Shown: positions 1-50,019, counted from the first letter of the stretch. The stretch is 64,000 nt of DNA from Bacteroidia bacterium (GCA_026391215.1 JAPLDX010000048.1:22052-86051), one strand, 5' to 3'. The notes: generated by a model not told the origin, from the letters alone. Numbers and translations: made by a program.

Positions 1-2422
1 GAGCTGGGCAGGCAATGTGGTTACCATCAGCGGAACTCCTACGACGACAACAGGAAGCCCGTTTGGCTATACAGTAACACTTACTGGAGGATGTGGAACA
101 GAGACAACAAACGGAACGATAACAGTCAATCCGGACAATACGATAACACTAACATCTGCTACTGTAACCAAAACGCAATGTGTAAAGATCAATGGAGCGA
201 TAATAGATATTACTTATTCGACAACAGGTGCAACAGGAGCAACAGTAACAGGATTACCGGCAGGAGTAACAGGGAGCTGGACAGGTAATACTGTTACAAT
301 TAGCGGGATACCCACAGCAACAGGAATCTTTAACTACAATATAACATTAACTGGAGGCTGCGGAACTGCGATCTCAGTAGGAACAATAACAGTCGCTGAT
401 GTTGTTGCGACAACTCTTCCCGAAGTAATATGCTTGTATGATCTCTCATGGAGCATGAACAGAGATTTTTATGATAATAGCACATCTGATCCTTTTGCAA
501 TAAAATTATACCATGCCAGAAATGCACTCTCAGCTTTCGTCGATCTGCTTTATAGTAATGAACCTTGTCAGTCAGCTTTGGGAGTGGCAAGATTTCCCGA
601 TTCTCCACAGGTTGGATGTGATGCCGGTACTGTCGAGATTTCACAATTCCTTGATAATCTGTATGATAATTATCTCACAGGTCCCTCGGGAAGAATTCAG
701 TCATTAATTGCTGATGGTAACAGCACTCCTCTTTTAGAAGGAGTCAATCATGCTATTGGGCTTTTCAACACAACAAATGCCAACAAAACAATTGTATTAT
801 TGACGGACGGCCGGCAGAATTGCCCATATTCAGGCATATCAAGCATAATAACAACCACAAATACCAGTTTGAAAAACGCAGGAATAAAGTTGTTTACAAT
901 AGGTTTCGGGGACTATGGCATAGTTCCGGACGACATCCTGGAACAGCTTGTTAATGGAACAGGAGGGAGGCATTATAATATTAGAACCTCTGAGAGCAAA
1001 TTGACTCCTCCTTATGACCCTGATGACCCTTCTTCTCTTGTTACATGGAATGCCGGAACTGCATTGAATGCAGTATTTAACAATATAATAAAAGTATTGC
1101 TGGGATTGGGAATATCAGATGACCCGCTGGATATAATTAACCAGGGCGAAGTAAAACAGTTCGATATACCGATAACAATTTTTGATGAGAAGGTATGTTT
1201 CTTTGTCAGCTGGGTAACTCCTCAGGAGAACTACCTTAATATTAAATTATTAACACCGGCAGGTACCGAACTGTCGCTTGACCAGGGCGGTATTAATATA
1301 ATACATCGTAATAACCATACCATAATCACCCTTTACGATGCATTGCTCAGTCAACCGGGCATGACCGGAATCTGGAAACTGAAAATTGACGGAACTGCAC
1401 TGGGAAATCCATCGGAGTTTTACCAGCATACAGTATTGAATACATCCAAAAAGCTTGATCTGAAAACATGGTTTGACAAGGAAAAATATTTAACCGGAGA
1501 GAAAATAAAAATATATGCTGAACTTTTGCTTGAGGAAAAACCGCTTGCAGGGCTGAATAAAACAATTATTATGGGAACCAGTCCGGAAATGAATCCCGGG
1601 AACTGGCTGGTAAGCAGGAAGCTTGACGCTCAAATGATTGAAAAAGCAAAGCAAAAGCAGCTTGAAGAATATCTGAAAGTGATCTCTGCTCAACATCTGA
1701 TTGAGAACCTGAACAGGGAAGCAAGAGAAGAATATCTTAATTCTCAGACAAATAATTTCCTGAAAAATATCGATCCGATAGAGGTAAGAATTCATGCATT
1801 AAGGGATGAATACCATCTGCTTCCACCGGGAGATGTTAAAATAAAAGGGCTGGCATTTAATGATAACGGCAAAAATGGAGATCAGAAAGCCGGAGACGGT
1901 ATTTACACTGCTGTTTATGTTCCAAAGCTGGAAGGCACATACAGTTTTAATATCTCATTCTCTGACTCAAGCCACGGTGAAAAGATATTACGCGAAAGCC
2001 ACATGCAGACTTTTATCAACTCCGGATCAAAATTGAAGTTCACCATCAGGAATATAAAGTTTATTGATAAAACAACGACCGGAGAAAAACTCTATGACAT
2101 AACATTCACATTAAAAGACAAATATGGGAATATCCCTATGCCTTATGCACTGGCTGATTTAAATCTTTCCATTGGCAAAGGCTTGCTTGTGGGGGTAATT
2201 ACTGATAACATGAATGGCACTTTCACTCAGAGAATATCACTTCCTTCAGGGGTAAGACTGAGAACAGTGATTTTATCATTCTCATCAGGCGAATTATCAG
2301 GCAGCAGGAAAATAGCCACGGGGACAGTGAAAATAATACTGCCTGCTATTGCCTTGATTTTGGCAGGAGCAATATTTTTACTGGCCGGTAAGAAGAAGAA
2401 AAAAAGAACGGATCAACTATGA
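1..2422 (+). CDS. VWA (MIDAS) domain protein with N-terminal Ig-like repeats, choice-of-anchor-X-like motif and C-terminal TM anchor; 5'-partial
   Basis: Frame is open from base 2 ([13 protein letters not shown]...), so the true start lies upstream of the window. Repeat [29 protein letters not shown] elements DLSWS (440-454), STP and LLTDG. Motif [20 protein letters not shown]-terminus [19 protein letters not shown] followed by KKKKKR. Confidence 0.8.
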
Positions 2423-2462
2423 AACCCGATAAAATGATAAATCCCAATATTGCCATTGGTCT

Positions 2463-5400
2463 ATGCAGATAAAAACCGGACATATTATCAAACGTATTAC
2501 AGTTGTAATATTGATGGTTTCTTTTGTGTCTGAATTATTTTCACAATTGTTTACAAACTCCGGTATTTCACCTTTACCTGCAAAAACACTTAAATCTTCG
2601 GTAAACTGGGTTGATCTTAACATGGATGGCTATCTGGATCTGTCAGTTTCTGGTGAAGATTGGGATGGATCCGGTTTGGCGCAGGGAATATTAAATATAT
2701 TCAACAGCAGCCATACGATTGGATCAAACATCAGTATCAGACCACTTAGTGAAGGCTATCAGACGTGGAGTGATTTCAACAATGATGGTTATCCCGATCT
2801 GCTTTATGCAGGTAAGAATACCGTGGCGACAGCAGGAGTTGATACCTTTGAAGTTTCACTTGTTTATCATAGTAAATTTTCAGGTTTTACACCGTTAACC
2901 AAAGCTACAGCAGACTGGGGTGATTTTGATAATGACGGGGATTACGATGTCCTTATAGCTGGAAAAGATGCAGGAGGTACAGTCGTTACGAACCTTTACA
3001 AAAACACGAAAGGAGTATTCACCGATGTAAATGCCGGATTACCGGGAATTACTGACGGCAAAGTCTCGTTTATAGATTACGACCTTGACCAGGACCTGGA
3101 TATTTTTATTACAGGGCTTGATATTAATGTGAATAAATATACCCGTCTCTGGAAAAATAATGGCGGGACATTTACAGTGACAAACGATCTGTTCGTGAAT
3201 CTCCGGTATAGTCAGTTTGACTGGGGCGATGTTAATGGTGACGGGTATCCAGATCTTATGCTCGGAGGCTGGGATGAAACAAAGTGCCGTGGTATGGTTT
3301 ACATAAACAATGCCGGTAACGGATTCACCCTCTCAACCTATAAAGTACCTCAGGCCAATCGCGGAACTTCAGGCTTCGGAGATGTTGATAATGACGGCGA
3401 TCTGGATGCTTTTATTTCGGGTGTGAAATTCCAGACGTCTATTCTTTATAACCTGGTTTTCTATAATAACGGAACAGATTCACTTGTACCTGATAATTTC
3501 TCACTACCCGACAGGATCGTCTACAGTTCTGCCCAGTTCGCAGACTATGATAATAATAATGTCCTGGATTTTGCGGCAAATGGCGCTAAGGAAGATGGTA
3601 ACGGAATGACATTTATTGGCATTAATTCATTCGCAACCCCGAACTCAAAACCATCTGTTCCGGTAAATCTTACTACCGTGGTTGAGGGGACATCAGTAAC
3701 ATTGAGCTGGGATAATGCCACTGATAATAATACTCCTCCGCAATCGATAACCTATAATATCTATGTCGGAGTTGCAGGCAATAAAATTAAAATTGTATCT
3801 CCGGTTGCTGACCTTACAACAGGATTCCGAAGGATAGCCAGATCCGGTTATATACGTGATAATGTCTGGACACTGAAAGATCTCCCTGTCGGCACATATC
3901 TCTGGGGAGTCCAGGCTATTGATAATTCACTTGGAGCTTCGGCCTTTTCAACCGAATCGACCTTCGACATCAAAGAACGGTTCACGAAAGTAACTTCAAC
4001 CGAAACTCCAAACATAAGTTCACCTGCAATCTTCTTTGACAGCGACCACGATAATGACATGGATATATTCCTTAATTGCACCAATTCATTGCAGATTATT
4101 GAAAATACCCTCAGTCCATTCACCCAGGCTAATTACAGAACGATCTCGGCTGACAGCTACAATCCCATTTCCACAATTACTCCGAATGATTATAATAATA
4201 ATAATCAGATCGATTTTAGCATCTCTGGAAACTATACTGTGAATGGTTTACGTGATTCAAGCATTGCATTGTATGGTTTCAACAGTGCGTTTAACTATAG
4301 TGTTGTAAATGAAGCCCTTGTAAAAAATATCAATTTTGAATATGTTCTGTGGACCGACCTTAACAATGACGGGAAACAGGATTTCATAACGTCAGGAATG
4401 ACAACCAACCTGACGACCAATAAGCCGGTCACCAGGCTTTATAAGAATCTGGGGAACGGGATTTTCCAGAAAGTCACACATTCAATAAGAGGCTTCGAAA
4501 AATGCGGGGCAGTAGCGGGTGATTTTGATAATGATATGGATGTTGATCTGATCATATATGGAAAGGATTCACTTGGAACTGCCAACACATATGTCTACAT
4601 AAATAAGGGGAATTTTGTTTTTACAGAAGAGCTGATATCCGGTAATGAATTATACAGAAAGTATCTTCAAAGCGGAATCTTTACAGGAGATTATAATCTC
4701 GATGGTCAGCTTGACATTTATTTGTCGGGGAATAACCTTCTTAATGACAAGTATATAAAAGTTCTCCTTAACAATTCGATGAATTTTACCGATGCCAACC
4801 TCCAGATAAGGACTTCAACCACTATGTCTAATTTCTGGGCCGATTATGATTATGACGGAGACCTTGATCTTTATTCACTATCCATTTATGGTTCACTTGA
4901 TAAAACGCGGCTCTATCTTAATAATAATGGTACTCTTGAGGAAATAATCATTGATCTTGCTGCCTCGAATAAACTTGAATTGCCGTTCATGGCCGTCAAT
5001 CTCGATAACAAAAACGGCCTGGATTTTCTGATGAAAATTGGTGCCGGAAACTACAATCAATATTATGATAACTGGGGCTCTAATGAACGGATAAGCACTG
5101 CTCCTGCCAACACACGGTACGACCAGGATAAGCTTGATATTATCCTGAAATGGGACAAATTATCATCTTGTCCGGGTTGTACTTATAACATAAGGGTTGG
5201 AACTGTGCCCAATGGGGTGGATATTATGTCGCCAATGTCGGATATCAGTACTGGCTACAGGTATGTTATTCAGCCGGGCAACGCTTACATGAATGAAAAA
5301 TGGAGATTATGTGATCTGCCGGTTGGAACATATTACTGGAGTGTGCAGGCAGTCGATCCTTCAAATACAGGGGGTCCCTGGTCTGCAGAAAATTCTTTTG

Positions 5401-8354
5401 TGGTCAGTCATATAGATGCGGATTTTTCATTCACAACTGTATGTAAAGGAGATTCAACAGCATTCAGTGATCTTTCTGTCGGAACGGATCCTATTACAAA
5501 ATGGAAATGGAGTTTCGGTGACGGCACTGTGAGCACCTTAAAGAATCCCAGGCATTTATATTCAGTTGCTGGTACTTTCACAGCCGGATTGTGGGCTTAT
5601 TCAGAAGTCGGAGATAGTGCATATCAGAGTTATGATGTACTGGTGAAAGCTGTCCCTGTTGCTGATTTCTCTGCAAATATTGCCTGCCAGGGAACACCAA
5701 CCACCTTTACAAACAATACAAATACCGGAGGACTCACAATCCTTAACTGGTTATGGAACTTTGGAGATGGACAAACATCAGACCTCCTGAATCCCGGAAC
5801 ACATGGATATCTCAATCCTACTGATTATCAGGCATCACTTACAGTCGTTGCAGATAACAGTTGTTCTGATGTAATTAACAGAACAGTTACGGTAGCCAGT
5901 TACCCTGCAGCTCTGATTACAACAGATGGATCACTGATTTTCTGTAAAGGAGACAGTGTAACTCTTTCCGTAACACATATCAGCAGCTATACATATGAAT
6001 GGATGGTCGGAGGGACCGCCCTTACCGGAGGAGATTCAAGCAGATACATAGCGAGGTTATCAGGGAATTACACTGTCGAGGTTGTTAATACAATCGGGAA
6101 CTGCAGGGATACCTCTTCAGTTATTGCAGTAACAGCACTGGATGCACCGGCAGCACCTTTGATAATTGCAGACGGTTCAAAGGTTTTCTGTGAGGGTGAC
6201 TCAGTAGTGCTGAGTGTTACAAATACTTCCGGATATACATATCAATGGAGACGCGACGGTGGGACAGTAGGAACCGATTCATACCAGCATGTTGCAAAAT
6301 CAGCTGGCATCTATTCTCTTACCGTTTCCAACTCGACAGGATGTGCTGTTGATGCAACGGATACTTTAAGTGTCACAGTAAATCCAAAGCCCACCCTGCC
6401 GGTTATAAGCATTAGCGGACCTACTACTTTCTGCCAGGGAGGAAGTGTAGAACTTAGTGTTGTAAATAATCCGCTAAACTCATATCAATGGGAGAATAAC
6501 GGAGCAGCCATGTCCGGAGCAACAACAAATGCTTATACTGCTCAGAATACAGGGGTTTATTCATTGAAAATCTCAAACTCAAGCGAATGTAGTATAAAAA
6601 CTGAAAACGATACAGTCAGTGTATTAACAGCTCCTTCTGCACCATTGATTTCAGCAGGCGGGGCACTTGAATTCTGTCTGGGTGATTCAGTGGTTTTAAG
6701 CGTTACAAATACTTCCGGATATACATATCAGTGGAGACGCGACGGTGGGACAGTGGGAACCGATTCATACCAGCATGTTGCAAAATCAGCTGGCATCTAT
6801 TCTCTTACCGTTTCCAACTCAACAGGATGTGCTGTTGATGCAACGGATACTTTAAGTGTCACAGTAAATCCAAAGCCCACCCTGCCTGTTATAAGCATTA
6901 GCGGACCTACTACTTTCTGTCAGGGAGGAAATGTGCAGCTTAGAGTTGTAGATAATCCGCTAATCTCATATCAGTGGGAGAATAACGGAGTTGCCATGTA
7001 CGGAGATACAATAAATGTTTATACTGCTCAAAATGCAGGGATTTATTCATTGAAAATCTCAAATTCAGATGGTTGTTATACAAGAACTGAATCTATAAAT
7101 GTTAGTGTTCTCACAGCACCATCTGCCCCTCTGATATCTGCAGCAGGGGCTATAGAATTCTGTTCAGGGGATTCGGTTATCCTTAGTGTTACCAATACGG
7201 TGGGAGACAATTATTATTGGAAACTAAATGGGGGCGCTGTAGGGACAAATTCAAATAAGTATACAGGAATAAATTCAGGGACCTATAGCCTGGTGGTATC
7301 CAACAGCAATAGATGCTCTGTTACCTCCACGAATTCAATTGATGTCATTGTGAAGAGTGTTCCAACTGTCGGAGATCTCAGTACTGAAGGGAAGCCGGAT
7401 TTCTGCGAAGGGAAGAATGTGATTCTCAGCATACCTTCTGTTGCCGGGTTCACTTACAGCTGGAGAAATGAATTCGGACCAATTAATGTCTTCACAAACA
7501 GCTATACAGCAACAACAACCGGCAAATACCAGCTGGAGATTTCAAATGCTTCAGGATGCAGTGTAAAAACTTCTCCAGTACAGGTTACAGTAAAACCATC
7601 ACCAGACAAACCTGATATAACTGATTATAATTACACGGAAAACAAGTGTCCGGCAGATGATCCTATCAGGCTTGAAGTTACCAATGCAGTTGAGGGTTAT
7701 CAGTATCAGTGGTATAAGGATGGAGTGAAAAGTGTTAACGATACGCTATCACATCTTGAATTCTATGAACAGGGTATATACAAGGTTGTGGCCGGTCTTG
7801 ATGAATGCCAGGCAGAATCTGATGCTTTTCCGATCACTCTTCCTGCGTCTCCCGATAAACCACTGATATATGCACAGGGCAATGTAGTATGGTACTTGGC
7901 ATGCAGTAATATGAAAGCCAAGGAGTATAAATGGTACTGCGACAGCAAGCTCATTGAAGGAGCTAAGGAGTACTTTTATGTTGTAGGGAGAAAGATGGGT
8001 GATTATCAGGTAAGCATTTCAAACGAACAGGGATGCTTTACAAGAAGTGATATCGTCACAATACCGGTCCCTGAAACAACGGAAATAGAAAATGCTGATC
8101 TGTTTGAAGGGATAATCATATATCCCAATCCTACAAACGGATTCTTCACAATCGAAATTGATAACAACTTATTCGGAGAACTGATCATCAGGATAATATC
8201 GGAGCAGGGGAAAGTAATAAGAGACATAAAGCTGGATAAAACGACTGAACACTTCTCCTCTGAAATTGACCTCAGCGGGCAGGCTTATGGTATTTATATC
8301 ATTAATCTGACCATTGAGAAATATTCTGCAACGAGGAAAGTGATTCTCAAATAG
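2463..8354 (+). CDS. T9SS type-A cargo, 1963 aa: 2 x (7-blade FG-GAP propeller + FN3-like), 2 PKD, about 9 Ig-like domains, CTD
   Basis: Signal peptide ending LFS-Q. 14 Dx[DN]xDG-type blades. Two YxWxVQA[IV]D FN3-like ends. Two W[SN]FGDG PKD motifs. Seven FCxGxx[VN] Ig-like repeats. C-terminal IYPNPT...RKVILK. Confidence 0.9.
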   Translation: MQIKTGHIIKRITVVILMVSFVSELFSQLFTNSGISPLPAKTLKSSVNWVDLNMDGYLDLSVSGEDWDGSGLAQGILNIFNSSHTIGSNISIRPLSEGYQTWSDFNNDGYPDLLYAGKNTVATAGVDTFEVSLVYHSKFSGFTPLTKATADWGDFDNDGDYDVLIAGKDAGGTVVTNLYKNTKGVFTDVNAGLPGITDGKVSFIDYDLDQDLDIFITGLDINVNKYTRLWKNNGGTFTVTNDLFVNLRYSQFDWGDVNGDGYPDLMLGGWDETKCRGMVYINNAGNGFTLSTYKVPQANRGTSGFGDVDNDGDLDAFISGVKFQTSILYNLVFYNNGTDSLVPDNFSLPDRIVYSSAQFADYDNNNVLDFAANGAKEDGNGMTFIGINSFATPNSKPSVPVNLTTVVEGTSVTLSWDNATDNNTPPQSITYNIYVGVAGNKIKIVSPVADLTTGFRRIARSGYIRDNVWTLKDLPVGTYLWGVQAIDNSLGASAFSTESTFDIKERFTKVTSTETPNISSPAIFFDSDHDNDMDIFLNCTNSLQIIENTLSPFTQANYRTISADSYNPISTITPNDYNNNNQIDFSISGNYTVNGLRDSSIALYGFNSAFNYSVVNEALVKNINFEYVLWTDLNNDGKQDFITSGMTTNLTTNKPVTRLYKNLGNGIFQKVTHSIRGFEKCGAVAGDFDNDMDVDLIIYGKDSLGTANTYVYINKGNFVFTEELISGNELYRKYLQSGIFTGDYNLDGQLDIYLSGNNLLNDKYIKVLLNNSMNFTDANLQIRTSTTMSNFWADYDYDGDLDLYSLSIYGSLDKTRLYLNNNGTLEEIIIDLAASNKLELPFMAVNLDNKNGLDFLMKIGAGNYNQYYDNWGSNERISTAPANTRYDQDKLDIILKWDKLSSCPGCTYNIRVGTVPNGVDIMSPMSDISTGYRYVIQPGNAYMNEKWRLCDLPVGTYYWSVQAVDPSNTGGPWSAENSFVVSHIDADFSFTTVCKGDSTAFSDLSVGTDPITKWKWSFGDGTVSTLKNPRHLYSVAGTFTAGLWAYSEVGDSAYQSYDVLVKAVPVADFSANIACQGTPTTFTNNTNTGGLTILNWLWNFGDGQTSDLLNPGTHGYLNPTDYQASLTVVADNSCSDVINRTVTVASYPAALITTDGSLIFCKGDSVTLSVTHISSYTYEWMVGGTALTGGDSSRYIARLSGNYTVEVVNTIGNCRDTSSVIAVTALDAPAAPLIIADGSKVFCEGDSVVLSVTNTSGYTYQWRRDGGTVGTDSYQHVAKSAGIYSLTVSNSTGCAVDATDTLSVTVNPKPTLPVISISGPTTFCQGGSVELSVVNNPLNSYQWENNGAAMSGATTNAYTAQNTGVYSLKISNSSECSIKTENDTVSVLTAPSAPLISAGGALEFCLGDSVVLSVTNTSGYTYQWRRDGGTVGTDSYQHVAKSAGIYSLTVSNSTGCAVDATDTLSVTVNPKPTLPVISISGPTTFCQGGNVQLRVVDNPLISYQWENNGVAMYGDTINVYTAQNAGIYSLKISNSDGCYTRTESINVSVLTAPSAPLISAAGAIEFCSGDSVILSVTNTVGDNYYWKLNGGAVGTNSNKYTGINSGTYSLVVSNSNRCSVTSTNSIDVIVKSVPTVGDLSTEGKPDFCEGKNVILSIPSVAGFTYSWRNEFGPINVFTNSYTATTTGKYQLEISNASGCSVKTSPVQVTVKPSPDKPDITDYNYTENKCPADDPIRLEVTNAVEGYQYQWYKDGVKSVNDTLSHLEFYEQGIYKVVAGLDECQAESDAFPITLPASPDKPLIYAQGNVVWYLACSNMKAKEYKWYCDSKLIEGAKEYFYVVGRKMGDYQVSISNEQGCFTRSDIVTIPVPETTEIENADLFEGIIIYPNPTNGFFTIEIDNNLFGELIIRIISEQGKVIRDIKLDKTTEHFSSEIDLSGQAYGIYIINLTIEKYSATRKVILK
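6216..6929 (+). repeat. Intragenic tandem duplication, period 486 nt (two Ig-like domains)
   Basis: 6216-6443 and 6702-6929 are identical except for 5 synonymous third-position differences. The second half of each 486-nt unit is more diverged. Confidence 0.95.
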
Positions 8355-8362
8355 AAAGGGTT

Positions 8363-8433
8363 ACAGTTTACGGTGCGTGGTCCAGGATATTTAGTACCAT
8401 TGTACCGTACACCATATACCATGAACCGTTTTT
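8363..8433 (+). terminator. Imperfect inverted repeat with 7-nt periodicity followed by a T-tract; possible intrinsic terminator
   Basis: Left arm ACAGT/ACGGT/GTGGT at 8363/8370/8377. Right arm ACC[AG]T at 8396/8404/8411/8418/8425, then TTTTT. Lies just after the stop of 2463-8354. Confidence 0.45.
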
Positions 8434-8476
8434 CATCACCACAAATCTGCTTCTTATCAAATACCGTGATAAAGAG

Positions 8477-8508
8477 TTGTTATTACAGGAAAAAAATCCT
8501 AAATTTTG
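8477..8508 (+). promoter_or_regulatory. Putative Bacteroidota primary-sigma promoter (TTG-N20-TAAATTTTG) for the giant cargo gene
   Basis: Variant of the TTTG-N19-21-TAnnTTTG consensus, about 25 nt before ATG 8534. The same motif and spacing recur before 39498. Confidence 0.55.
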
Positions 8509-8533
8509 TGTTTTTTCCATCCATTTAGGCGAG

Positions 8534-37000: not shown

Positions 37001-38330
37001 AACAATTCGTTTACAGAGCAGACAGGCATTAATCTCTTTGGCGTTCAGAATGGCTCAGTTGCGTTTGGCGATTATGATAATGACAATGACCTGGACATCC
37101 TGCTTACAGGTATGACCAGCGGCTCATTCCCTGTTTCAAAAATATACAGGAACAATGGCAACAATACCTTCACCGAGCAGGCAGGTATCAGCCTGATCGG
37201 AACAAGCTACTCTTCCGCCAGCTGGAGTGATTTCAACAAGGATGGCTATCTTGACATTCTCCTTACCGGTCAGGGCGCCGGATCAAACCTTATATCAAAG
37301 ATCTACAGGAACAATGGAAATAGTACTTTCACTGAACAGGTTGACATAAGCCTGGAACGCGTTTCAAAAGGTTCATCTGCCTGGGGAGATTATGATAATG
37401 ACGGTGATATAGATTTTCTGCTTACAGGCAATAACAGCTATGGAACACAGCAATCTGTTTCGGTTATCTATGCGAATAACGGCGACAGCACATTTACCGT
37501 GCAGTCAGGAATCAGCCTGCCGGGTGTAATGAACAGTTCTGTTGTATGGGGCGATTACGACAATGATGACGATCTTGATTTACTGCTAACAGGATATAAT
37601 AATGATGGCACAATGCTTTATATATCAAGAATATACAGGAACGATGGTAATAATGTATTTACTTATCAGTCAGGAATAAAGCTCGAGGGTGTGGCTAACA
37701 GTTCGACAGCATGGGGTGATTTCGACAATGACGGTGATCTGGATATTTTATTGTCCGGCCGTCTTGTATCAGGAGGATTCACCTCAAAGATATACAGAAA
37801 CAACAGCAATAACACATTTACGGAAGTGCCCGGCACTTCATTTACAGGTGTCGGCTACTGCTCTGTGGCATGGGGTGATTATGATAACGACGGGGACCTT
37901 GATATATTAATGACAGGACAGAGTACCGGTTCAACAGTAGTATCAAAGATCTACAGGAACAATGCAATAATGAAGGCAGGGGATTACGGAGCCAACAGAA
38001 AGCCAGCTCCACCGGCAAACCTTGCTTCTGTACGTCTGCCTGAGGGTATGAAGCTTTCATGGTCACCGGTAAAAACTGATGAAACACCTTATAAGTCATT
38101 AACCTATAATATATATGTCAAATCGCGTGAAGAAGGATATCTGACCTTCTCAGCGCAATCCGACAGTGTCACGGGATTCCGCCGGATAGTATCGATGGGG
38201 AATGCCCAGACAGACACGACTTATCTTATAAAGAATCTCACACCGGGGAAATATGACTGGAAGGTCCAGGCTGTTGACCAGGGTTACAGGGGAGGATACT
38301 GGGCTGACGGAGGGATGCTTAATGCAAAGA
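8600..38330 (+). repeat. 17 tandem coding repeats of about 1.75-1.85 kb (propeller + FN3-like-1 + FN3-like-2; unit 17 lacks the second FN3)
   Basis: The [ST]YN[VIL]R-type motif recurs near 9780, 11520, 13250, 15000, 16750, 18495, 20245, 21985, 23750, 25510, 27300, 29075, 30870, 32625, 34430, 36250 and 38100. Confidence 0.95.
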
Positions 38331-39439: not shown

Positions 39440-39471
39440 TTGTTTTCGGTCGAAAATTATAGTAAATTTTG
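39440..39471 (+). promoter_or_regulatory. Putative promoter (TTG-N20-TAAATTTTG) for 39498-46523 and the downstream trio
   Basis: Same motif and spacing as 8477-8508; about 26 nt before ATG 39498. Confidence 0.55.
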
Positions 39472-39497
39472 TTAACATTTCTTTAGACCTGATCGGG

Positions 39498-42400: not shown

Positions 42401-45400
42401 GTCATTTATTTTCCTTAATGACCTTATAGTCAAAAATACTCGACCTCAATCTCCTATGGGATTGAAAGTTACAAAGGATACATATAGTACTATACTCTCC
42501 TGGAATCCTGTTACAACTGATGAAACTCCCCCCAAAGGATTATCCTATAATCTTCTGGTCGGAACAACCTCCGGGGGAGAACAAATAAAAACTGCTATGT
42601 CATCTGTCATAGGTTTTCACCGATTGGCATCTTACGGAAACTGTTTCCTTGACACATTTTATATTTTGAGAAACCTCCTGCCAAAAACTTATTACTGGAC
42701 AGTTCAGGCAATTGATAACGGTTTTTATAGCAGTTCTTTTGCACCGGAAAATAGTTTTACTATTGACAGTATCCAGTCGAGCAGGCTAGAAGGGGAGCTT
42801 TTAAGCAATAATAGCTCTGGTATAAAAGTTAAGTGGAAGAACGGAAATGGATCACATAGGATAGTATTCTGTAAACAAGGCACATCCGGAATTGCATTAC
42901 CTGTTAACAATAAAACATACTCAGATGATCCTATCTTCGGATATGGTGACCAGATTTCAAATTCGGGATGGTATTGCGTCTTTAATGGAAGAGCAGACAG
43001 TACAACAGTTTATGGCTTATCTCCAGGTGTTGCTTATTCCTTCAATGTCATTGAATATATCGGAATGACAGGCAATGAGAAATATTATAGATGTTCAGGA
43101 GCAGCAAATCCCGGTATCTTTTCCACAGGCATTTTTTCTGAACAAACGGACATAAGCCTTTCAGAATCTTATCATGTTGCCTGGGGTGATTATGATAATG
43201 ATGGACTGTTAGATATATTGCTTTCCGGCTATCCTTCAAAGGTATATCATAATAATGGTGATAATTCTTTTACTCAACTAAGCGGCGTCACCTTTCCAAA
43301 TAGTGCTTTTGCAACATGGAGCGATTTTGACAACGATGGAGATCTAGATATTTTTGTACCAGTAGATCTGGGTTTAAAAATATTTTTGAATAATAACAGT
43401 ATCTTTTCCGAAATCCCGGAATTAACGACTCCTATCAAAGACGCATATTCATTTAGCTGGTGTGATTATGATACTGATGGGAATATGGATTTTTTAATTA
43501 CCGGTACATCTGGAACCTACCCGGATTTTAATCCTGCTTCGATAATATATCACAATGACGGCGATAATAACTTCCAACCTCAGGAAGATATTGCTCTTGA
43601 AGGAGTTTGGTATAGTTCTTCAGTCTGGGGTGATTATGATAATGATGGTGATCTGGATATTCTTTTAACTGGTACTAATTCTTCTTCAAAGTTTACAAAA
43701 TTATATCGCAATGATGGCAAGAATAGTTTTATTGAACAATCCGATATCCAGCTTGCCAGAGTCTATCTGAGTTCAATTGCCTGGGGTGATTATGATAATG
43801 ATGAAGATCTGGATATTTTATTGACCGGTGCTGGAGCTGGAAGAATATCCAAGATATACCGGAATGAGCGCAATAATAAATTTAATGAACAGACAGGAAT
43901 AAACCTGACGGGAGTTGATTACGGGTCTGTTGCCTGGGGTGATTATGATAATGATGGCTATCTGGATATTCTGTTGACCGGAAGAACACAGCAGGGCAAT
44001 AATATTTCGAAGATTTATCATAATAACGGTAATAACTCATTTACAGAGGTAACCAGTATATTCCTTACTGGTGTTTTTGTAAGCTCAGTCGCTTGTGGTG
44101 ATTATGATAATGATGGTGATCTCGATATTTTGATGTCAGGCAACACTGGATCGGCTAATATTACTAAAGTCTACAGGAATAATATTATAATGAAATCAGG
44201 CAGCTTTACCGCAAATATTAAGCCGGGTACCATTTTGAATAATAAGGTTTTATTTCAGCCTGATGGCATAAAGCTGGCCTGGTCACCTTTAAAGGAAGAT
44301 GAAACGCCCTACAAAGCAATGACATATAATATTCGAATTGGCAATTCAAGAAAAGGTTCAAATATTTGCCCTTCTCAAACAGATTCTATAACCGGATATC
44401 GCAGAATAAATGAAATGGGTAATGCCAATATGGATACCACTTATTTTATAAGAAATCTTGCTTCAGGAAAATATTACTGGAGTGTCCAGGCAGTTGACCA
44501 GGGATACATGGGTGGAACATGGTCCGCGATAGATTCTTTTGAAGTCAGAAATGTCCAGGCGTTCTATTCTGCAGACGAAGTATGCCTTGGACTCTCAACC
44601 ACTTTTACTGATCAGTCTGTTGCCACCGACAGCATTGCTGAATGGAAGTGGGATTTCAGGGACGGATCCTCATCTTCTGAACAGAATCCGGTTCATACCT
44701 ATTCCATTAGTGGAAATTACAACGTAAAACTGGTAATTACTGATAATAGCGGCATTAAAGACTCTCTGGAACAGAGCGTTATCGTTAAACCTAAACCGCT
44801 TACAGGCTTTTCCGCACCGGCTGTATGCCAGGGAATACCTGTAACTACGACTAACACAACGAATAACAATGGATTGACAATTTCTTCATGGAGCTGGAAT
44901 TTTGGAGACGGAGGTACATCAACCGATCTGCAACCGGCTCCACACGGATACCTTAATGCAGGCGATTATTCGGTAAAATTGAAAGCTGTTGGTTCAAATG
45001 GCTGTGCAGATTCCGTAACAAATATTGTTTCAGTCGGAAGCTATCCTGTTGCCGCAGTAACAGCAAATGCACCCCTTACTTTCTGCAAAGGAGACAGTGT
45101 TACTCTGTCAGTTCCATATAATGCTGATTACCTGTACACCTGGAAAGTAGACGGAACAAATCTGACAGGCGGCGATTCAAGCAAATATATGTCAAAACTG
45201 ACCGGCAGCTATTCTGTCGAGTTGGTTAATCCGAAAGGAAGCTGTACAACAACCTCTTCTGCCGTTGCAATAACAGTTAAGGATGCTCCGGCAGCTCCCC
45301 TGATATCTGCAGCCGGAGTTGTGACATTCTGCCAGGGCGATTCTGTAATTTTAAGTGTAACGAATACACTTAATTATACTTATCAGTGGAAGCTCAACGG

Positions 45401-46523
45401 GGGCGCCGTTGGTAGTAATTCCTGTCGATTCTCAGCAAAAAACGGCGGAACATATAACCTTAGTGTCACGAATTCAACCGGATGTTCAGTTGCTTCAACA
45501 AACTCAGTAACTGTTACAGTCAACCCGTCGCCAACGGCTGGCAATATCAGTCTTCAAGGTGAAAAGTCGTTCTGTGAGGGGGAATCGGCTACTCTGAGCG
45601 TACCATTAACAGCAGGGTATACATATAAATGGAGAAACGAAAACGAACTTATTCCGGGAGCTGAAGCAGAAAGTTATGTTGTCACTGCCTCAGGAACATA
45701 CCAGTTAGAAATCTCGAACTCATCAGGCTGCTTAGTGAGGACTACCCCCGTCAGTATTACAGTGAAACCGACACCTGAAAGGCCTGTTCTTAGATCAACC
45801 AACTATACAAAAGACGTTTGCCCGGGAGACAATCCTATAAGGTTAAGCGCCATCCGGGAAGTTGCAGAGTATGGTTACCTGTGGTACAAGGATGGACAAC
45901 CGCAGTATAGTGATACTCTTTCATATATTGAATTCTACGAAGGAGGATTCTATATGCTTGAAGCGAAACTGAGCGAGTGTTCGAGTGAATCCAAGGTTGA
46001 CACTATCAATCTCCCGAATGGTCCTGAGAAGCCGGTGATCTATGTCCGCGGATCGATAGTCTGGTATCTTGCATGCAGCAATATGACGGCAAATGATTAC
46101 AGGTGGTATCGTGACGGGAAACTGATAGAGGGTGCTAAGAGCTATTTTTATGTAGCCGGCAATATAGTAGGACTATACCAGGTAAGTATAGCAGATATCC
46201 AGGGATGCTTTACCAGAAGCGATTTGGTGGCCGTTCCCGCAGGTTACACCGGAATAGATGATGTTGATCTTTTTACCGGACTTAAAATTTACCCGAATCC
46301 AACCACCGGACTGATCAACATTGAAATTGAAAATGAGATTATTGGTGATCTTTTAATCAAGATTATTAATCAGGATGGGAAAGAATTATATAACTTTATC
46401 TTCGAAAAAAGTTCAGCTTATTTTTCAACTGAACTGAACCTGGGAGGACAACCTGAAGGATATTATTTGATTATCTTTGATTTAAACAGAAAGCTTGCAG
46501 TAAAAAAGATCATTTTAGAATAA
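39498..46523 (+). CDS. T9SS type-A cargo, 2341 aa: 3 FG-GAP propeller units with FN3-like domains, 2 PKD, about 5 Ig-like domains, CTD
   Basis: Signal peptide ending TLFP-Q. 21 blades. WDFRDG and WNFGDG PKD motifs. FCKGDSV, FCQGDSV and FCEGES repeats. C-terminal IYPNPTTG...KKIILE. Confidence 0.9.
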   Translation: MNGFFLKKQGLLWILLFSNLTLFPQTFTELTGTTIPGVNYSSISPGDIDKDGNLDFFITGSAGSSLLSKIYINNGNSTFTELSSVYFPGVFYGSACWRDYDNDGDLDILLTGSINISISSADLISKIYRNDGSNTFTSLSGINITPLYYSFTDWGDYDNDGYSDILISGATGSDVAVTKIYHNNGDDTFSEETGIIIQSVQRGITKWVDFDTDGYLDIFISGSSSQGIISKFYHNNGNGTFTTIINTNIPGMADGSVEWCDYDNDGDPDFLISGLGLTRIYRNDGNCIFTQQSNITLPGLRYSSASWGDYDNDGHSDFVITGSTNSSYSGAITKIYHNNGNDTFTELSGTSLPGVYKGSVIWADLDKDGRLDLMLSGINSSNTRITKIFKNNTTVSNNAPLSVGGLLSSVNDSSVVLKWNRVQGDSTPARGMSFNIRIGFSPGAGNIVSPMVNGSGYRLLTGYGNTFSDTIFILKHLKKNTYYWSVQAIDNGYSAGPFASDQLFTFSASLQAYKVITERIQGSAVDLRWQRGNGNGCMVFAKKDNLGYASPQNNTSYIANSHFGLGTQIGSTGWFCVYNGTDMTVTVTDLEGLTDYIFQVFEYNTGPLFYNNSGQGNPVTARTSVFTEQTGLNLYGDIWSSEQWGDYNNDGYLDLIIAGYSETKIYMNNGDKTFSEQTGISPPATYHGVVKWGDYNNDGYLDILISGYGFSKIYRNNGGTTFTEMPSAGFIGLTSSSADWGDLDNDGDLDVILSGMSGTTEVTKIYRNNGDNSFTEQPGIDISGSSSGIIKCVDYNNDSYIDIFISSANFSKIYHNNSDFTFTEQTDINLFAIQNGSVDWGDYDNDGRIDVIIAGYNGAYGVRTKVYRNLGNNVFSEQNDIVLPVLQDCSIVWGDYNSDGYLDILMSGDNWYIPMTKIYLNNRDNTFSVQDNISLPDLSYSAAAWADCDNDNDLDFLVTGTTTSGISKSFIFLNDLIVKNTRPQSPMGLKVTKDTYSTILSWNPVTTDETPPKGLSYNLLVGTTSGGEQIKTAMSSVIGFHRLASYGNCFLDTFYILRNLLPKTYYWTVQAIDNGFYSSSFAPENSFTIDSIQSSRLEGELLSNNSSGIKVKWKNGNGSHRIVFCKQGTSGIALPVNNKTYSDDPIFGYGDQISNSGWYCVFNGRADSTTVYGLSPGVAYSFNVIEYIGMTGNEKYYRCSGAANPGIFSTGIFSEQTDISLSESYHVAWGDYDNDGLLDILLSGYPSKVYHNNGDNSFTQLSGVTFPNSAFATWSDFDNDGDLDIFVPVDLGLKIFLNNNSIFSEIPELTTPIKDAYSFSWCDYDTDGNMDFLITGTSGTYPDFNPASIIYHNDGDNNFQPQEDIALEGVWYSSSVWGDYDNDGDLDILLTGTNSSSKFTKLYRNDGKNSFIEQSDIQLARVYLSSIAWGDYDNDEDLDILLTGAGAGRISKIYRNERNNKFNEQTGINLTGVDYGSVAWGDYDNDGYLDILLTGRTQQGNNISKIYHNNGNNSFTEVTSIFLTGVFVSSVACGDYDNDGDLDILMSGNTGSANITKVYRNNIIMKSGSFTANIKPGTILNNKVLFQPDGIKLAWSPLKEDETPYKAMTYNIRIGNSRKGSNICPSQTDSITGYRRINEMGNANMDTTYFIRNLASGKYYWSVQAVDQGYMGGTWSAIDSFEVRNVQAFYSADEVCLGLSTTFTDQSVATDSIAEWKWDFRDGSSSSEQNPVHTYSISGNYNVKLVITDNSGIKDSLEQSVIVKPKPLTGFSAPAVCQGIPVTTTNTTNNNGLTISSWSWNFGDGGTSTDLQPAPHGYLNAGDYSVKLKAVGSNGCADSVTNIVSVGSYPVAAVTANAPLTFCKGDSVTLSVPYNADYLYTWKVDGTNLTGGDSSKYMSKLTGSYSVELVNPKGSCTTTSSAVAITVKDAPAAPLISAAGVVTFCQGDSVILSVTNTLNYTYQWKLNGGAVGSNSCRFSAKNGGTYNLSVTNSTGCSVASTNSVTVTVNPSPTAGNISLQGEKSFCEGESATLSVPLTAGYTYKWRNENELIPGAEAESYVVTASGTYQLEISNSSGCLVRTTPVSITVKPTPERPVLRSTNYTKDVCPGDNPIRLSAIREVAEYGYLWYKDGQPQYSDTLSYIEFYEGGFYMLEAKLSECSSESKVDTINLPNGPEKPVIYVRGSIVWYLACSNMTANDYRWYRDGKLIEGAKSYFYVAGNIVGLYQVSIADIQGCFTRSDLVAVPAGYTGIDDVDLFTGLKIYPNPTTGLINIEIENEIIGDLLIKIINQDGKELYNFIFEKSSAYFSTELNLGGQPEGYYLIIFDLNRKLAVKKIILE

Positions 46524-46533
46524 TTATATATAA

Positions 46534-48507
46534 ATGAAACGATCAGCTCCTCTTATCCTGTTTATCATTTTTAATCTCATACCCGGATTAAAGGCTCAGG
46601 TTGAATTTTCAGATAAAGAGAAGTCTATAATTTATACAAACGCCGTGAAGGTGCTTGAGGATTATCAGACAACGATAAATCAAATGGGTGAATATGTTAT
46701 AAGTGATATCGAGAAAGCCAAAAGCAGCGCTGAAGCCTTCCTTGAGCTTTTTGTAAACAGGCAGGTATTTATCTATAATGATCTGGACCCCACAAATAAA
46801 CAGACCCAAAAACTTAGTGAATTTTACGAGGCTGAAACATATTCAAACAGTATAATACTCTGGTATCCCGACGGCATAACAATTAACCTCGACCTTACCA
46901 ACGCGAAGGTGAGTAATATAATGTCGCACGAAAACAATATCTACTCAATCGACATACTCGCTAAAAAATCAATAAATGGCAACTTTCAGAACCAGACACT
47001 TAACCAGAACGTGGAGGATCTGACTTTCAGGATTGCTTTCAGCATGGAGAATAAAACATTAGGCGACTTCAGGATTGTTGGAATCAGAAGCGCAGCATCA
47101 AACACAGTGGTTGACTATTCACAGGCGCTTAAAGAGGTTAACGCAGAAGACCTTAATGATGTGGATCTGGCCAAGATCCAGAGTGAAATAAAAGCTATAC
47201 TCCAGGATTATACAAATTTCCTTTCATTAATTGGTGATCCTCAGGAGCCTGCCGAGGACAAGGAATTCTATAAGGAGAGCTTTCTCAAACTCTTCCCGGC
47301 CAACGATACCAGGGTCTATAACGATATTTCACCAGAACCGGAAACAAGCCTGATTTCTGTTGCAGATTATTTGACCAGCTATATTGCCGATTATCCGAAC
47401 GGGATAAAAAACCTCTCCATAAATGCTGATTCAGCAAAATTCGGCAAAGTGATAAAAGCTGATGACGGAAGCTTCTTTACCTATACCAATGCCAATAAAT
47501 TCTTTTCAGGAAGCTATAAAGGCAAGGATGCTTTCAGAAAACCTTTTGCACTCATCTTTAAAATCTCATTTAAGTCTGTTGAAAAGACATTCTCGGATTT
47601 CCGGATAAGCAGTATTGATATATCCGCAGTTGATTTCTATGAAGCAACTCCCGGAGCAGCTGGTGCAGGAGAACTTCCGCAGATAGTAATTAAACCTGTT
47701 ACCAGAAAAGGTTTTGTTATTTCACTTATCGGTTCATTCGGATTGACAAACATAACTAACAAGAACATTGAATCCCTCACACTTCCCAAAGATTCGGTTT
47801 CCTGGAATACTTCACCCCTGTCAGGCTATATAACCGCTCTTGGAGTCAGTTACTATTTCAACGACAATATTTCTGTACGTAGTGGGCTGGAGTTCAACAC
47901 ATATTCCGCAAAATATGACCTGTCTGGTAAATTCGGGAATAAGATCCTTACAGCTGATATCAATTCCGACCAGTTTTACAAAAAAATTGTAGCTGATTAT
48001 GATTCGACAGTTACAATCAATTATCTGACTCTCCCGATCCTTGCTGGCTATACAAGCGGAAAACCGGGGAAATTCGGATTTTTTGCAGAAGGAGGAATAA
48101 AAATATCCATACCTCAGAAAGCCTCATATAAAACTTCAGGTAAATATAAATACTGGGGCTATTATCCTGACAATCCTACTGTACTTCAGCGTATGGATCC
48201 GGAAATAATGGATCCGGACAATACAGGCACTCTTACTCCTTTTGGGTATTACTACAAGCCTGATATTGACGAAACAAACACGGTAAAAATAAAGGGTTTC
48301 AACCTGGCCTTCTATGCATCTGCAGGTATAAATATTCCGCTCGGGTACTATTCTTCTATTACATTTGGCCCGGAAGCTATAATAGGTCTTACGGATATTG
48401 GAAGCGACAAAGGAAAATACCTCGATATTTTTGGCACAGAACACGATCACATGCCAACAAAGATCAAAAGTTTTGGTTTCAGAATAAGTTTAGCATACAA
48501 ATTGTAG
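46534..48507 (+). CDS. Predicted outer-membrane beta-barrel protein (PorT/OMP_b-brl_2-like C-terminus) with two tandem N-terminal domains of unknown function
   Basis: Signal peptide ending LKA-Q. Internal repeat LEDY...FLELF...YNDLDP...YPDGI versus LQDY...FLKLF...YNDISP...YPNGI. C-terminal amphipathic strands, a YLTLPI motif and terminal FGFRISLAYKL. Confidence 0.65.
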   Translation: MKRSAPLILFIIFNLIPGLKAQVEFSDKEKSIIYTNAVKVLEDYQTTINQMGEYVISDIEKAKSSAEAFLELFVNRQVFIYNDLDPTNKQTQKLSEFYEAETYSNSIILWYPDGITINLDLTNAKVSNIMSHENNIYSIDILAKKSINGNFQNQTLNQNVEDLTFRIAFSMENKTLGDFRIVGIRSAASNTVVDYSQALKEVNAEDLNDVDLAKIQSEIKAILQDYTNFLSLIGDPQEPAEDKEFYKESFLKLFPANDTRVYNDISPEPETSLISVADYLTSYIADYPNGIKNLSINADSAKFGKVIKADDGSFFTYTNANKFFSGSYKGKDAFRKPFALIFKISFKSVEKTFSDFRISSIDISAVDFYEATPGAAGAGELPQIVIKPVTRKGFVISLIGSFGLTNITNKNIESLTLPKDSVSWNTSPLSGYITALGVSYYFNDNISVRSGLEFNTYSAKYDLSGKFGNKILTADINSDQFYKKIVADYDSTVTINYLTLPILAGYTSGKPGKFGFFAEGGIKISIPQKASYKTSGKYKYWGYYPDNPTVLQRMDPEIMDPDNTGTLTPFGYYYKPDIDETNTVKIKGFNLAFYASAGINIPLGYYSSITFGPEAIIGLTDIGSDKGKYLDIFGTEHDHMPTKIKSFGFRISLAYKL

Positions 48508-48523
48508 TGTAACAAAGAAAACA

Positions 48524-49162
48524 ATGGATTATATGCCTAAGAGAATCTTAATAACACTGGCGATATTGTTTGTAAGCCTCTGTGTCACAGCACAGGAGAC
48601 AAAAACTGCCATTACCAGCAAACAGGCAAAAATTACAGATGAAATTAACCTGAGCGCTGCCGATATTGAATTATTCAAGCAACAAACCAAGCAGAAAGTT
48701 GAAGAATTCCAGCAATATATTGTCACACTTGGAAGCAAGGATGAACCTGCCGAAAAGCGTAACATGGCCGAAAAAGAAGCATTAAAGCTCTTCTACAAAG
48801 GCGCCGAAATGGAAATAACGACAATTCTTCCGGATGGAACAGTACAGAAAGTAAACCGGCCGATGGAAAAATACCTGGCCCGACTGAAGTCCCTTCCTTT
48901 TACCAAGGTCATTATTAAATTCTACGATATTGCATATATAAGGGAATTTACAAAAGGTCCTGATGGCAAGTATTACTCAACAGCTACCATAATCCAGGAA
49001 TTCACAGGCTTCAGCAATGACGATATTATTTACACAGATGTCACTAAAAAGGAAGTGGAAATCATAATCGATATTGTTGAGGATACCTTTTTCCAGGAAA
49101 AAAGATGGAAGATATTCCTTGGCGATATCAAAGCTACAGAAACAAAAACAGCCGTTTCCTGA
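48524..49162 (+). CDS. Exported hypothetical protein; stand-alone homolog of the repeated domain of 46534-48507
   Basis: Signal peptide ending VTA-Q (start 48524 or 48533). LGSKDEPAEKR...ALKLF aligns with IGDPQEPAEDK...FLKLF; KGPDGKYY...EFTG aligns with KADDGSFF...FFSG. Confidence 0.75.
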   Translation: MDYMPKRILITLAILFVSLCVTAQETKTAITSKQAKITDEINLSAADIELFKQQTKQKVEEFQQYIVTLGSKDEPAEKRNMAEKEALKLFYKGAEMEITTILPDGTVQKVNRPMEKYLARLKSLPFTKVIIKFYDIAYIREFTKGPDGKYYSTATIIQEFTGFSNDDIIYTDVTKKEVEIIIDIVEDTFFQEKRWKIFLGDIKATETKTAVS

Positions 49163-50019
49163 TGTCAGCTTTTTACTGCAGAATAAGACTGATCCGGGGC
49201 TCAATCCTGGTAATCCTGATATTTCTTATCAGCTGTCCGCTCTTTTCACAGAATCTTTCCGATCCGCAGAAAGAGCGTGAAGATATATTTATAGCAAGGA
49301 TAAAGCAGTTTAATGAATTTGCCGACAGGTTCAACCTTAAAAGCGATTTTAACGGGAATCCTGCTGATTCTGCATTTAGGGCTAAAATGCCGCGCGAAAG
49401 AATGATACCTCTTCTCTTTGACCTTAAAGATCCGCGCATCCAGACTTCAGATACAAGATATTCAGCTGATTATGTCAGGATTAAGGAAGAATTTGTCAGA
49501 GACGTTATTCAGAAGAAACTCTTTCTCTATAAATATTCACAGGGAATTATTGCAGAGGCCAGGTCCAGGGTAATATTTCAGGGAGAACCTCAGAAAATAA
49601 GGCTTTTTCTTATCCAGGAAATTGTGGGTGATGACATGGTCAAGTGGGTTCTCTATTCAGCCAAAGGTGATATGCTCAATGTTTTTAAAACGGATACTTC
49701 AATGGTCAGGTTCATTCCGCCTTCAAGCAATGAGACTGATTTTATAAACCTGAAAAGGGCGCTTGAGGATACTGACCATCTTCAATATTATGCATCACAT
49801 AACTTTGAACCTGACTATCTTACATTATTCTTTTCTTATATCGGAGCCGGCTTAATAAAATTTGAATATGTTGAAGAGGTTGTATATCATATTATTGATA
49901 TCCCGGGCTGGTATATAAAAGTAAAGGATTTCAACAGAACCGATCTTAATTCAGGCTGGCTTATAACCGATGTAATGAAGAACGATCTTGAACTGCCTGC
50001 TTTTATCAAAATCCCGTAA
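49162..50019 (+). CDS. Exported hypothetical protein, 285 aa
   Basis: ATG 49162 overlaps the TGA of the previous gene. Signal peptide MSAFYCRIRLIRGSILVILIFLISCPLFS-Q. Long open frame with no family recognised. Confidence 0.75.
   Translation: MSAFYCRIRLIRGSILVILIFLISCPLFSQNLSDPQKEREDIFIARIKQFNEFADRFNLKSDFNGNPADSAFRAKMPRERMIPLLFDLKDPRIQTSDTRYSADYVRIKEEFVRDVIQKKLFLYKYSQGIIAEARSRVIFQGEPQKIRLFLIQEIVGDDMVKWVLYSAKGDMLNVFKTDTSMVRFIPPSSNETDFINLKRALEDTDHLQYYASHNFEPDYLTLFFSYIGAGLIKFEYVEEVVYHIIDIPGWYIKVKDFNRTDLNSGWLITDVMKNDLELPAFIKIP

Follow-up and report, generated by a model that had tools for sequence, protein, structure and literature searches.

We analyzed a block of genes for surface and secreted proteins in a 64,000-nucleotide (nt) stretch of DNA from a Bacteroidia bacterium, referred to as the window in the following (contig C31:22052-86051 of a 3.39-Mb genome in 135 contigs, G000; positions are those of the window unless a contig is named). 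A six-frame map of open reading frames (ORFs) revealed that window 1-50019 is an unbroken run of + strand genes that all have the same orientation. The run starts with a gene for a protein with a VWA domain and a transmembrane (TM) helix (ORF 2..2422, open at its 5' end), continues with genes for very large FG-GAP proteins that carry a C-terminal sorting domain (CTD) for the secretion system of type IX (T9SS) and are termed cargos here (ORFs 2463..8354, 8477/8534..31093, 31112..39325, and 39498..46523), and ends with a trio of genes for a predicted outer-membrane barrel protein (46534..48507) and two smaller proteins, p212 (48524..49162) and p285 (49105/49162..50019). The intergenic gaps are 40 nt (2422 to 2463), 179 nt (from 8354 up to the ATG that starts at 8534), 172, 10, and 16 nt, and the stop codon of p212 overlaps with the start codon of p285 as TGATG at 49160-49164. 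An initial annotation of this DNA had described a co-oriented 50-kb block with these gaps and one overlap, all of which were exact in the ORF map. The true left end lies 1,265 nt to the left of window base 1, where the VWA gene starts (C31:20787), and the whole block thus comprises about 51 kb. The right border consists of housekeeping genes, again as annotated initially: first comes an EEP-family gene on the - strand, then mutL (TIGR00585, 477 bits), a pair of rhomboid genes, another EEP gene, and genes for a PALP enzyme, NDH-2, and nuo subunits. The Pfam and NCBIfam domains detected over the block are VWA, FG-GAP, PKD, Ig_7, Por_Secre_tail, and OMP_b-brl_2, and signal peptides are present on all block products, except for ORF 31112..39325, which is the tail part of a split gene. 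The signal peptides of the cargos were judged by eye from the sequence, as hydrophobic N-termini ending in ...FSQ, ...FPQ, and ...FPQ.

The cargos were said to be of type A, and indeed TIGR04183, the type A CTD model (cut-off 23; PF18962 in Pfam), matched at three C-termini, with 45.9 bits for the ORF ending at 8354, 37.4 bits at 39325, and 32.3 bits at 46523, and there was no such match at the C-terminal end of ORF 8477/8534..31093. Cargo 1 (2463..8354, + strand) is a protein of 1,963 aa with a signal peptide, FG-GAP propeller(s), PKD and Ig_7 domains, and the type A CTD. Cargo 3 (39498..46523, + strand; 2,341 aa) has a signal peptide, three propeller units, PKD and Ig_7 domains, and the type A CTD. 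Between them lies the giant cargo, a frame of 10,263 codons (8534..39325, + strand) with PKD domains and a type A CTD at its end. By motif counting, we found 8, 103, and 18 calcium-loop motifs in cargo 1, the giant cargo, and cargo 3, with about seven motifs per unit of about 583 aa. The cargos therefore have roughly one to two, about 16 (by spacing), and three propellers, respectively, which are seven-bladed with calcium loops. The propeller units are divided by a twin fn3-like linker that carries the motif WSVQA[IV]D, of which the giant cargo has 11 strict copies.

It is in one of these linkers that the giant cargo is interrupted. ORFs 8477..31093 and 31112..39325 share one frame and are divided by a single in-frame TAA (31091-31093, + strand), which sits in the linker sequence F-stop-A-S-V-Q-A; the upstream piece has the signal peptide without a CTD, and the downstream piece has the CTD without a signal peptide. 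In twelve other aligned linkers, the residue at this position is Ser (nine), Thr (one), or part of a divergent sequence (two; TI|DSIQ), and four related metagenome sequences are open at the equivalent position, with Ser or Asn. A relative has an intact 9,274-aa gene in the same location. No metagenome contig matched a degenerate-codon pattern over the TAA junction, and a protein-based metagenome scan of the junction segment yielded only relatives with at most 56% identity. In the present assembly, the giant cargo would be either inactivated by this TAA or mis-assembled, and the TAA may be a nonsense mutation, a variant within the population, or an assembly error. The view that the block encodes three FG-GAP T9SS cargos thus stands with regard to domains and CTDs, and has to be modified for the middle cargo, which is split as assembled. 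At another locus (L054:1-11043), the cargo before the barrel is spread over more than 15 short ORFs and is a decayed copy or belongs to an error-rich assembly.

The barrel gene (46534..48507, + strand) starts 10 nt after the stop codon of cargo 3. Its product of 657 aa consists of a signal peptide, two tandem copies of a domain that we term X (D1, residues ~23-195, and D2, ~196-375), and a C-terminal PF13568 barrel (~380-657). The PF13568 model OMP_b-brl_2 matched residues 397-622 with 42.1 bits in the whole protein and 44.7 bits in the barrel part (cut-off 27). D1 and D2 are paralogues (hhalign, 98.2% probability, E 2.7e-14), and no Pfam or PDB family was matched by the sequence of the X domain. 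The AlphaFold model, calculated from 30 homologues (pLDDT 80, pTM 0.66), has two alpha+beta domains followed by the barrel. When the barrel part was compared using Foldseek, the matches of best probability were OmpA, OmpW, Ail, OmpX, NspA, and OpcA, and the N-terminal domain pair matched the tandem NTF2-like conjugation protein TcpC (3ub1; E 2e-5 to 6e-5), with the low TM-scores of a multi-domain query. The X domains are predicted to face the periplasm, since N-terminal extensions of small barrels are usually oriented in this way.

The PorP/SprF barrels, for which a need in secretion and/or surface anchorage has been proposed, are encoded beside type B cargos, as far as the respective statements in two publications go (PMC9143113, PMC12618676). 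The barrel of the window was initially thought to differ from these, and this proved correct: a Pfam scan at E values of up to 10 gave just OMP_b-brl_2, OMP_b-brl, and Toluene_X and not PorP/SprF (PF11751), and neither PorP_SprF nor any T9SS model matched in an NCBIfam scan of the barrel. We also rejected a FadL-like barrel of the PorV/PorQ kind, as matches to FadL/TodX folds had probabilities of 0.14-0.97 and TM-scores of at most 0.20; Toluene_X, the sole FadL-family signal of the barrel, was sub-threshold with E 0.072. At one locus (L046:302-2051), the barrel is split into two ORFs, which again is due to a decayed copy or an error-rich assembly.

The p212 gene (48524..49162, + strand) encodes 212 aa that comprise a signal peptide and a single free X domain. 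Comparing the trio proteins with each other directly by BLASTP gave almost no information, and profile comparison was required: a wider X profile from 78 diverse p212-like proteins aligned with barrel domain D2 at 93.9% probability (hhalign, E 1.5e-7). The sequence of p212 had no match in Pfam, NCBIfam, or the PDB. The protein is highly conserved, with a mean column identity of 76% and overall identities of 67-96% where the barrel has 36-79%, and it still reaches 67-72% where the barrel is down to 36-39%. The p285 gene (49162..50019, + strand), whose start was placed at 49162 because the family members have 285-287 aa, encodes a signal peptide and an alpha/beta protein of 285 aa in total with an invariant C-terminal NSGWLI motif. 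The p285 model (pLDDT 76.5) had no fold match in the PDB (best E 0.047), there was no PDB sequence match either, and p285 was related neither to the barrel profile nor to the wider X-family profile. None of the trio proteins has a CTD or a lipobox that is conserved over the homologues. All three signal peptides end just before Gln, in agreement with the rule for substrates of signal peptidase I in Bacteroidetes.

Protein searches yielded 241 relatives of the barrel and 254 relatives of p285, all of them from metagenomes or metagenome-assembled genomes (MAGs) and all unnamed or hypothetical. Using a scan with one genome per species, we obtained 38 loci in MAGs labelled Bacteroidales, uncultured Rikenellaceae, Tenuifilaceae, and similar, called their ORFs, and compared these with the window proteins; for upstream genes, only barrels with more than 300 nt of upstream sequence were counted. 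In 32 of 35 barrel genes, an FG-GAP cargo homologue ends at most 450 nt, and mostly at most 16 nt, before the barrel. Of the three exceptions, two (L040 and L046) are ORF-calling artefacts, and the count is thus effectively 34 of 35. Downstream of the barrel, p212 follows in 33 and p285 in 31 of the 35 barrels with enough downstream sequence, and the barrels that have no p212/p285 are extra copies between cargos (L014, L037); these duplicated barrels each come after a cargo. The order is also retained at loci that are not next to mutL and whose barrels are 36-44% identical (L043, L048-L050, L053), and at least eight loci with other downstream genes keep the succession of cargo, barrel, p212, and p285 with gaps of 3-16 nt. 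As the arrangement recurs in about 34 species-level genomes, it is far beyond chance. The initial annotation had linked the trio to large FG-GAP type A cargos, and for the barrel and its close p212/p285 orthologues, which directly follow such cargos in 32-34 of the 35 testable loci, this link was confirmed. Within the genus, the barrel is patchy and occurs in 3 of 25 genomes, including the source genome.

The source genome encodes the SprA translocon that T9SS cargos would use, since the Sov/SprA model TIGR04189 matched residues 1-900 of a 2,417-aa ORF on contig C111 with 1,070 bits (cut-off 200), and 20 ORFs of this genome end in a type A CTD according to a hidden Markov model that was built iteratively from the window CTDs. 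The barrel subfamily has only two significant members in the genome, and both directly follow FG-GAP giants, namely the 2,341-aa cargo of the window and a 4,189-aa cargo on contig C38. In the latter pair (C38:62365-75844, - strand), the 4,189-aa FG-GAP type A cargo is followed by a barrel of the PF13568 subfamily that has about 295 aa and no X domains, and neither p212 nor p285 was found near this pair. Plain barrels of the same subfamily and of about 295 aa also occur in the relatives, and a type A CTD ORF lies directly upstream of them in all eight loci for which upstream sequence was available. These gene arrangements make it quite probable that barrel and cargo are functionally coupled.

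At the left end of the block, the VWA-TM gene (window 1..2422, + strand, which corresponds to the 3' 806 codons) encodes a protein of 1,228 aa from C31:20787 onward. The order of its elements is signal peptide, PKD_6, Thr/Gly-rich repeats, VWA (PF00092, 30.5 bits, cut-off 23.8), choice-of-anchor X domain (a named family; 45.9 bits), C-terminal TM helix, and KKKKKR. The residues of the metal ion-dependent adhesion site (MIDAS; DxSxS...T...D) are intact and read DLSWS ... NSTPL ... LLTDG. The 16 homologues of highest similarity (41-62% identity), as well as a more distant one, have retained the TM helix and the basic tail, and a signal peptide is present wherever the N-terminus is available. From this organization, the VWA-TM protein is likely periplasmic and tethered to the inner membrane. 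The most distant homologues (P0260 and P0261) do not end in a TM helix with basic tail, and their ends resemble the termini of beta-barrels or beta-strands (...GHAGLILRL and ...RLGAIWKF); such apparently beta-like termini fit the alternative anchoring that is implied by the choice-of-anchor domain. In 6 of 6 loci (window, L038, L055, L056, L057, and L147), the VWA-TM gene has a cargo1-type gene behind it, in agreement with the initially proposed co-occurrence. The cargo1-type proteins next to the VWA-TM proteins have FG-GAP, PKD, and Ig_7 domains and a CTD, with 1,434-1,808 aa in L038, L055, L056, and L147, and in L057 the pairing is kept despite a small insertion between the two genes. This insertion (L057:3773-5234) contains a PIN_2 toxin-like gene and small ORFs.

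The X domain is by no means restricted to this type of locus. A profile search with p212 in 1.84 billion representative proteins found 875 clusters (50% identity) at E values of at most 0.001, of which 561 were at E values of at most 1e-10. Many members of the family are exported proteins of about 200 aa, and in others the domain forms the C-terminal part of a longer protein. We examined eight distant loci, which represent six distinct contexts (L058, L059, L060/L061, L062/L063, L064, and L066, the paired ones being duplicates). In none of the six did a barrel or an FG-GAP cargo lie beside the p212-like gene, and a p285 homologue was the next gene in five (E 1e-25 to 1e-62). In L058, L059, L060, and L066, there is an additional gene with a barrel-type X domain at the N-terminus (E 1e-7 to 1e-30), which is fused to an FGE-sulfatase, Fib_succ_major, DUF4384, or unassigned domain. 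A secreted Peptidase_C14 gene is found directly upstream in three of the six contexts, and in one representative protein (P0378) a caspase domain is fused to the X domain. All proteins of the distant X/p285 modules start with a signal peptide, and none has a CTD. Genes beside the distant modules encode a secreted caspase, Peptidase_C1, DUF4384, FGE-sulfatase, Fib_succ_major, Pkinase, VWA, PP2C, WD40, and Tubulin_2 proteins. The X/p285 pair is an uncharacterised envelope module of Bacteroidota in its own right, and the trio is evidently the local form of a general triad that consists of a free X protein, p285, and a fusion of X with a variable domain, which is the barrel in the present case. 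As judged from their distribution, p212 and p285 look like generic periplasmic adaptors and not like CTD receptors. The term "dedicated", which had been applied to the whole trio, is therefore too strong for p212 and p285, as the p212 family comprises 875 clusters and the six distant contexts have neither barrel nor FG-GAP cargo.

With respect to the flanks of the block, a region upstream of and divergent from the VWA gene (C31:15157-20276) encodes a 610-aa secreted protein with caspase (Peptidase_C14) and CARDB domains and a Reg_prop/Y_Y_Y sensor with a PP2C-type phosphatase at its end; the domains of the sensor were taken from its L055 homologue, and L055 has the same left flank of caspase/CARDB protein and sensor, including an ABC transporter. 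PADLOC gave a generic caspase match only for the 610-aa protein, and its models did not match the barrel, p212, p285, or the VWA protein. On the right side, mutL is followed by a tandem pair of rhomboid-family genes (window 52912-54542), and an EEP-family gene flanks this group on each side. The EEP/mutL/rhomboid block is syntenic in most relatives, and the rhomboids accompany mutL and not the trio, as L048-L050 do not have them. We considered the rhomboids as rhombosortases for the VWA tail and rejected this, as they scored 34.3 and 28.3 bits with TIGR03902 versus a cut-off of 84; GlyGly-CTERM sorting of this tail was rejected as well, as no GG precedes the C-terminal helix. A terminator scan found no + strand terminator in the 179-nt and 172-nt gaps. 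Terminator counts, as well as promoter counts in 38500-51500, were within about one standard deviation of shuffled sequences, and the promoter count in 1-9500 was about two standard deviations above them, with a scan that does not model Bacteroidota promoters. Composition gave no sign of a recent horizontal transfer of the island, as the GC content is 0.37-0.46 inside and 0.39-0.43 outside.

In our view, these data describe a conserved, lineage-restricted cell-surface locus of uncultured Bacteroidales. For this reading, which includes the mechanism described in the following as a whole, we see about as much reason for acceptance as for reservation, with function deduced from genomic context and structure prediction. 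The barrel would be a cargo-linked outer-membrane partner that serves as anchor or hand-over point for giant cargos, and it would thereby do for type A cargos what PorP/SprF barrels do for type B cargos. The two N-terminal X domains of the barrel protein could act as a scaffold, and a homotypic X-X contact could recruit the free X protein p212 together with its obligate neighbour p285. X and p285 may be a generic periplasmic adaptor pair that is wired elsewhere to caspase-like peptidases, FGE-sulfatase-like proteins, and DUF4384 proteins, and that here would link the barrel to the way in which the cargos are handled or processed in the periplasm. The VWA-TM protein of the inner membrane, with its periplasmic MIDAS site, would be a specific partner of the cargo1-type propeller protein.

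Several aspects weigh against this reading. The window has three cargos and one barrel, which is not a 1:1 relation, and two FG-GAP type A cargos of the same genome (C113 and C133) have no adjacent barrel. The barrel is small, of the OmpA/OmpW/Ail class, and unlike the FadL-like carriers PorV and PorQ. The mutL synteny is common to about two thirds of the loci, which are therefore not fully independent, and in L044 three genes on the opposite strand lie between cargo and barrel. Most of the diversity of the p212 family is found outside cargo contexts, and the function of p212 and p285 is therefore not intrinsically about T9SS cargo. The periplasmic location proposed for the X domains derives from general barrel topology, and all roles proposed here are deductions from genomic context and prediction in organisms that are all uncultured.

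The main alternative explanation is that the trio is a periplasmic module for proteolytic or regulatory maturation, perhaps acting together with the upstream caspase/CARDB protein, that controls processing or turnover of the cargos, with the barrel being just its tether to the outer membrane. The neighbours of the distant p212-like genes agree with this idea: they directly follow Peptidase_C14 genes in three of the six contexts and are also found near Peptidase_C1 and DUF4384 genes, P0378 is a caspase-X fusion, the caspases of L060 and L064 have weak X-like C-termini, and the 610-aa caspase/CARDB protein and the Reg_prop/Y_Y_Y/PP2C sensor are encoded upstream of the VWA gene both here and in L055. 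However, the local caspase gene is divergent and has no X domain, a conserved caspase beside the cluster was seen in just one other locus, L055, which shares the whole flank, and plain barrels without X domains follow CTD genes as well. This last aspect points to a cargo-barrel relation that is independent of any protease, and we regard the maturation module as unlikely. The same plain barrels, which are found behind CTD genes in 8 of 8 loci, also argue against the view that the adjacency is merely inherited synteny without functional coupling, in which an unrelated envelope module is located by chance between mutL and an adhesin island in a single lineage of Bacteroidales. It is true that the downstream genes (EEP, mutL, two rhomboids, EEP, and PALP) are common to most loci, and the presence of the barrel in 3 of 25 same-genus genomes is as expected of a lineage-specific island. 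Yet copies with 36-44% identity in at least eight loci with different downstream genes have the same order with gaps of 3-16 nt, and the duplicated barrels of L014 and L037 are each behind a cargo. Pure synteny is disfavoured by these findings, and we consider it a very unlikely explanation.

The left part of the block could also be read as an integrin-like adhesin of two chains, in which the VWA-TM protein with its MIDAS, as the beta-like chain, pairs with the FG-GAP/Ig-leg protein encoded 40 nt downstream, as the alpha-like chain, and the trio is secondary. This is in agreement with the intact MIDAS residues (DLSWS ... NST ... TDG), the seven-bladed propellers with calcium loops, the invariant order of VWA and cargo 1 in 6 of 6 loci, and the TM helix with basic tail that is conserved in the 16 closest homologues and one more distant homologue. 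The predicted compartments differ, however, as the VWA protein would reside at the inner membrane, whereas the propeller protein would be exported by means of its T9SS CTD, and the propeller proteins have no TM anchor and end in this CTD. An adhesin of this type therefore seems improbable to us, with a somewhat better standing than pure synteny. We thus prefer the reading of a cell-surface locus with a cargo-linked barrel. A bolder version of it would be that the X/p285 triad is an unrecognised, widespread periplasmic adaptor of Bacteroidota that docks on any X-fused exported protein, and that the small barrel serves particular type A cargos as a dedicated receptor or anchor that does not depend on PorV. 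We put this forward as a tentative and rather doubtful idea; if true, type A substrates would have a cognate-barrel route like the one that is known only for type B.

A distinct small-barrel subfamily whose genes directly follow those of type A cargos predicts cargo-specific helpers for type A substrates. With giant multi-propeller adhesins, the barrel has two additional domains of predicted periplasmic location and is accompanied by two further conserved proteins, which raises the question of how the periplasm deals with proteins of 2,000-10,000 residues and how these are retained at the surface. In addition, three families without relatives in Pfam, NCBIfam, and the PDB have been found, which are the X domain, p285, and the X-barrel fusion, and the large X family with its 875 clusters and its link to secreted caspase-like peptidases elsewhere offers access to an envelope module of Bacteroidota that is uncharacterised.

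In the literature, we found no named system and no paper that describes this gene set, in line with the initial annotation, and also none that combines T9SS with FG-GAP. There are partial resemblances to several known systems. As in integrin alpha/beta pairs, a seven-bladed calcium-binding FG-GAP propeller on Ig-like legs and a MIDAS VWA domain on a single-pass protein occur together, here in adjacent genes. Unlike in integrins, the propeller proteins have a T9SS CTD where a TM helix would be expected, one chain can contain as many as about 16 propellers, and a heterodimer is hypothetical.

The VirB8/TcpC-type NTF2-like domains of type IV secretion and conjugation systems are oligomerising periplasmic scaffolds, and the tandem N-terminal domains of the barrel protein had Foldseek matches to TcpC (3ub1). 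Differences are that there is no sequence relation, that no genes of a type IV secretion system are nearby, and that the present domains are fused to an outer-membrane barrel and not to an inner-membrane anchor. The recruitment principle is reminiscent of the effector-associated adaptor domains (EADs) of bacterial conflict systems, which are small domains shared by core and variable partners (Kaur et al. 2020, PMC7159879). Like EADs, the X domain is a small domain that is common to the core and variable partners of one locus, which implies homotypic recruitment, and the partner sets overlap with respect to caspase, FGE-sulfatase-like (FGS), vWA, and PP2C domains. Unlike the EAD systems, which are cytoplasmic and NTPase-centred, the X/p285 proteins all have a signal peptide, and their core contains no NTPase.

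With regard to T9SS, the attachment complex of Porphyromonas gingivalis has the pairs PorU-PorV and PorZ-PorQ, in which a type A-like CTD protein stays with a dedicated outer-membrane barrel. PorV and PorQ are FadL-like barrels, in contrast to the present barrel, which matches the 8-10-stranded OmpA/OmpW/Ail/OpcA class. A cargo-linked barrel for type A is not current doctrine, because one of the two publications cited above, from 2025 and at least in its statements on this matter, has type A CTDs all recognised by the common PorV shuttle and cognate PorP/SprF barrels only for type B (PMC12618676). The present cargos are of type A and not of type B, and the barrel belongs to PF13568 without any PorP_SprF match, has two putative NTF2-like domains of predicted periplasmic location, and comes with two extra conserved proteins. 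What the locus nevertheless has in common with SprF-SprB and PorP-PG1035 is the barrel gene immediately downstream of a very large T9SS adhesin, and the repetition of such barrels next to several cargos.

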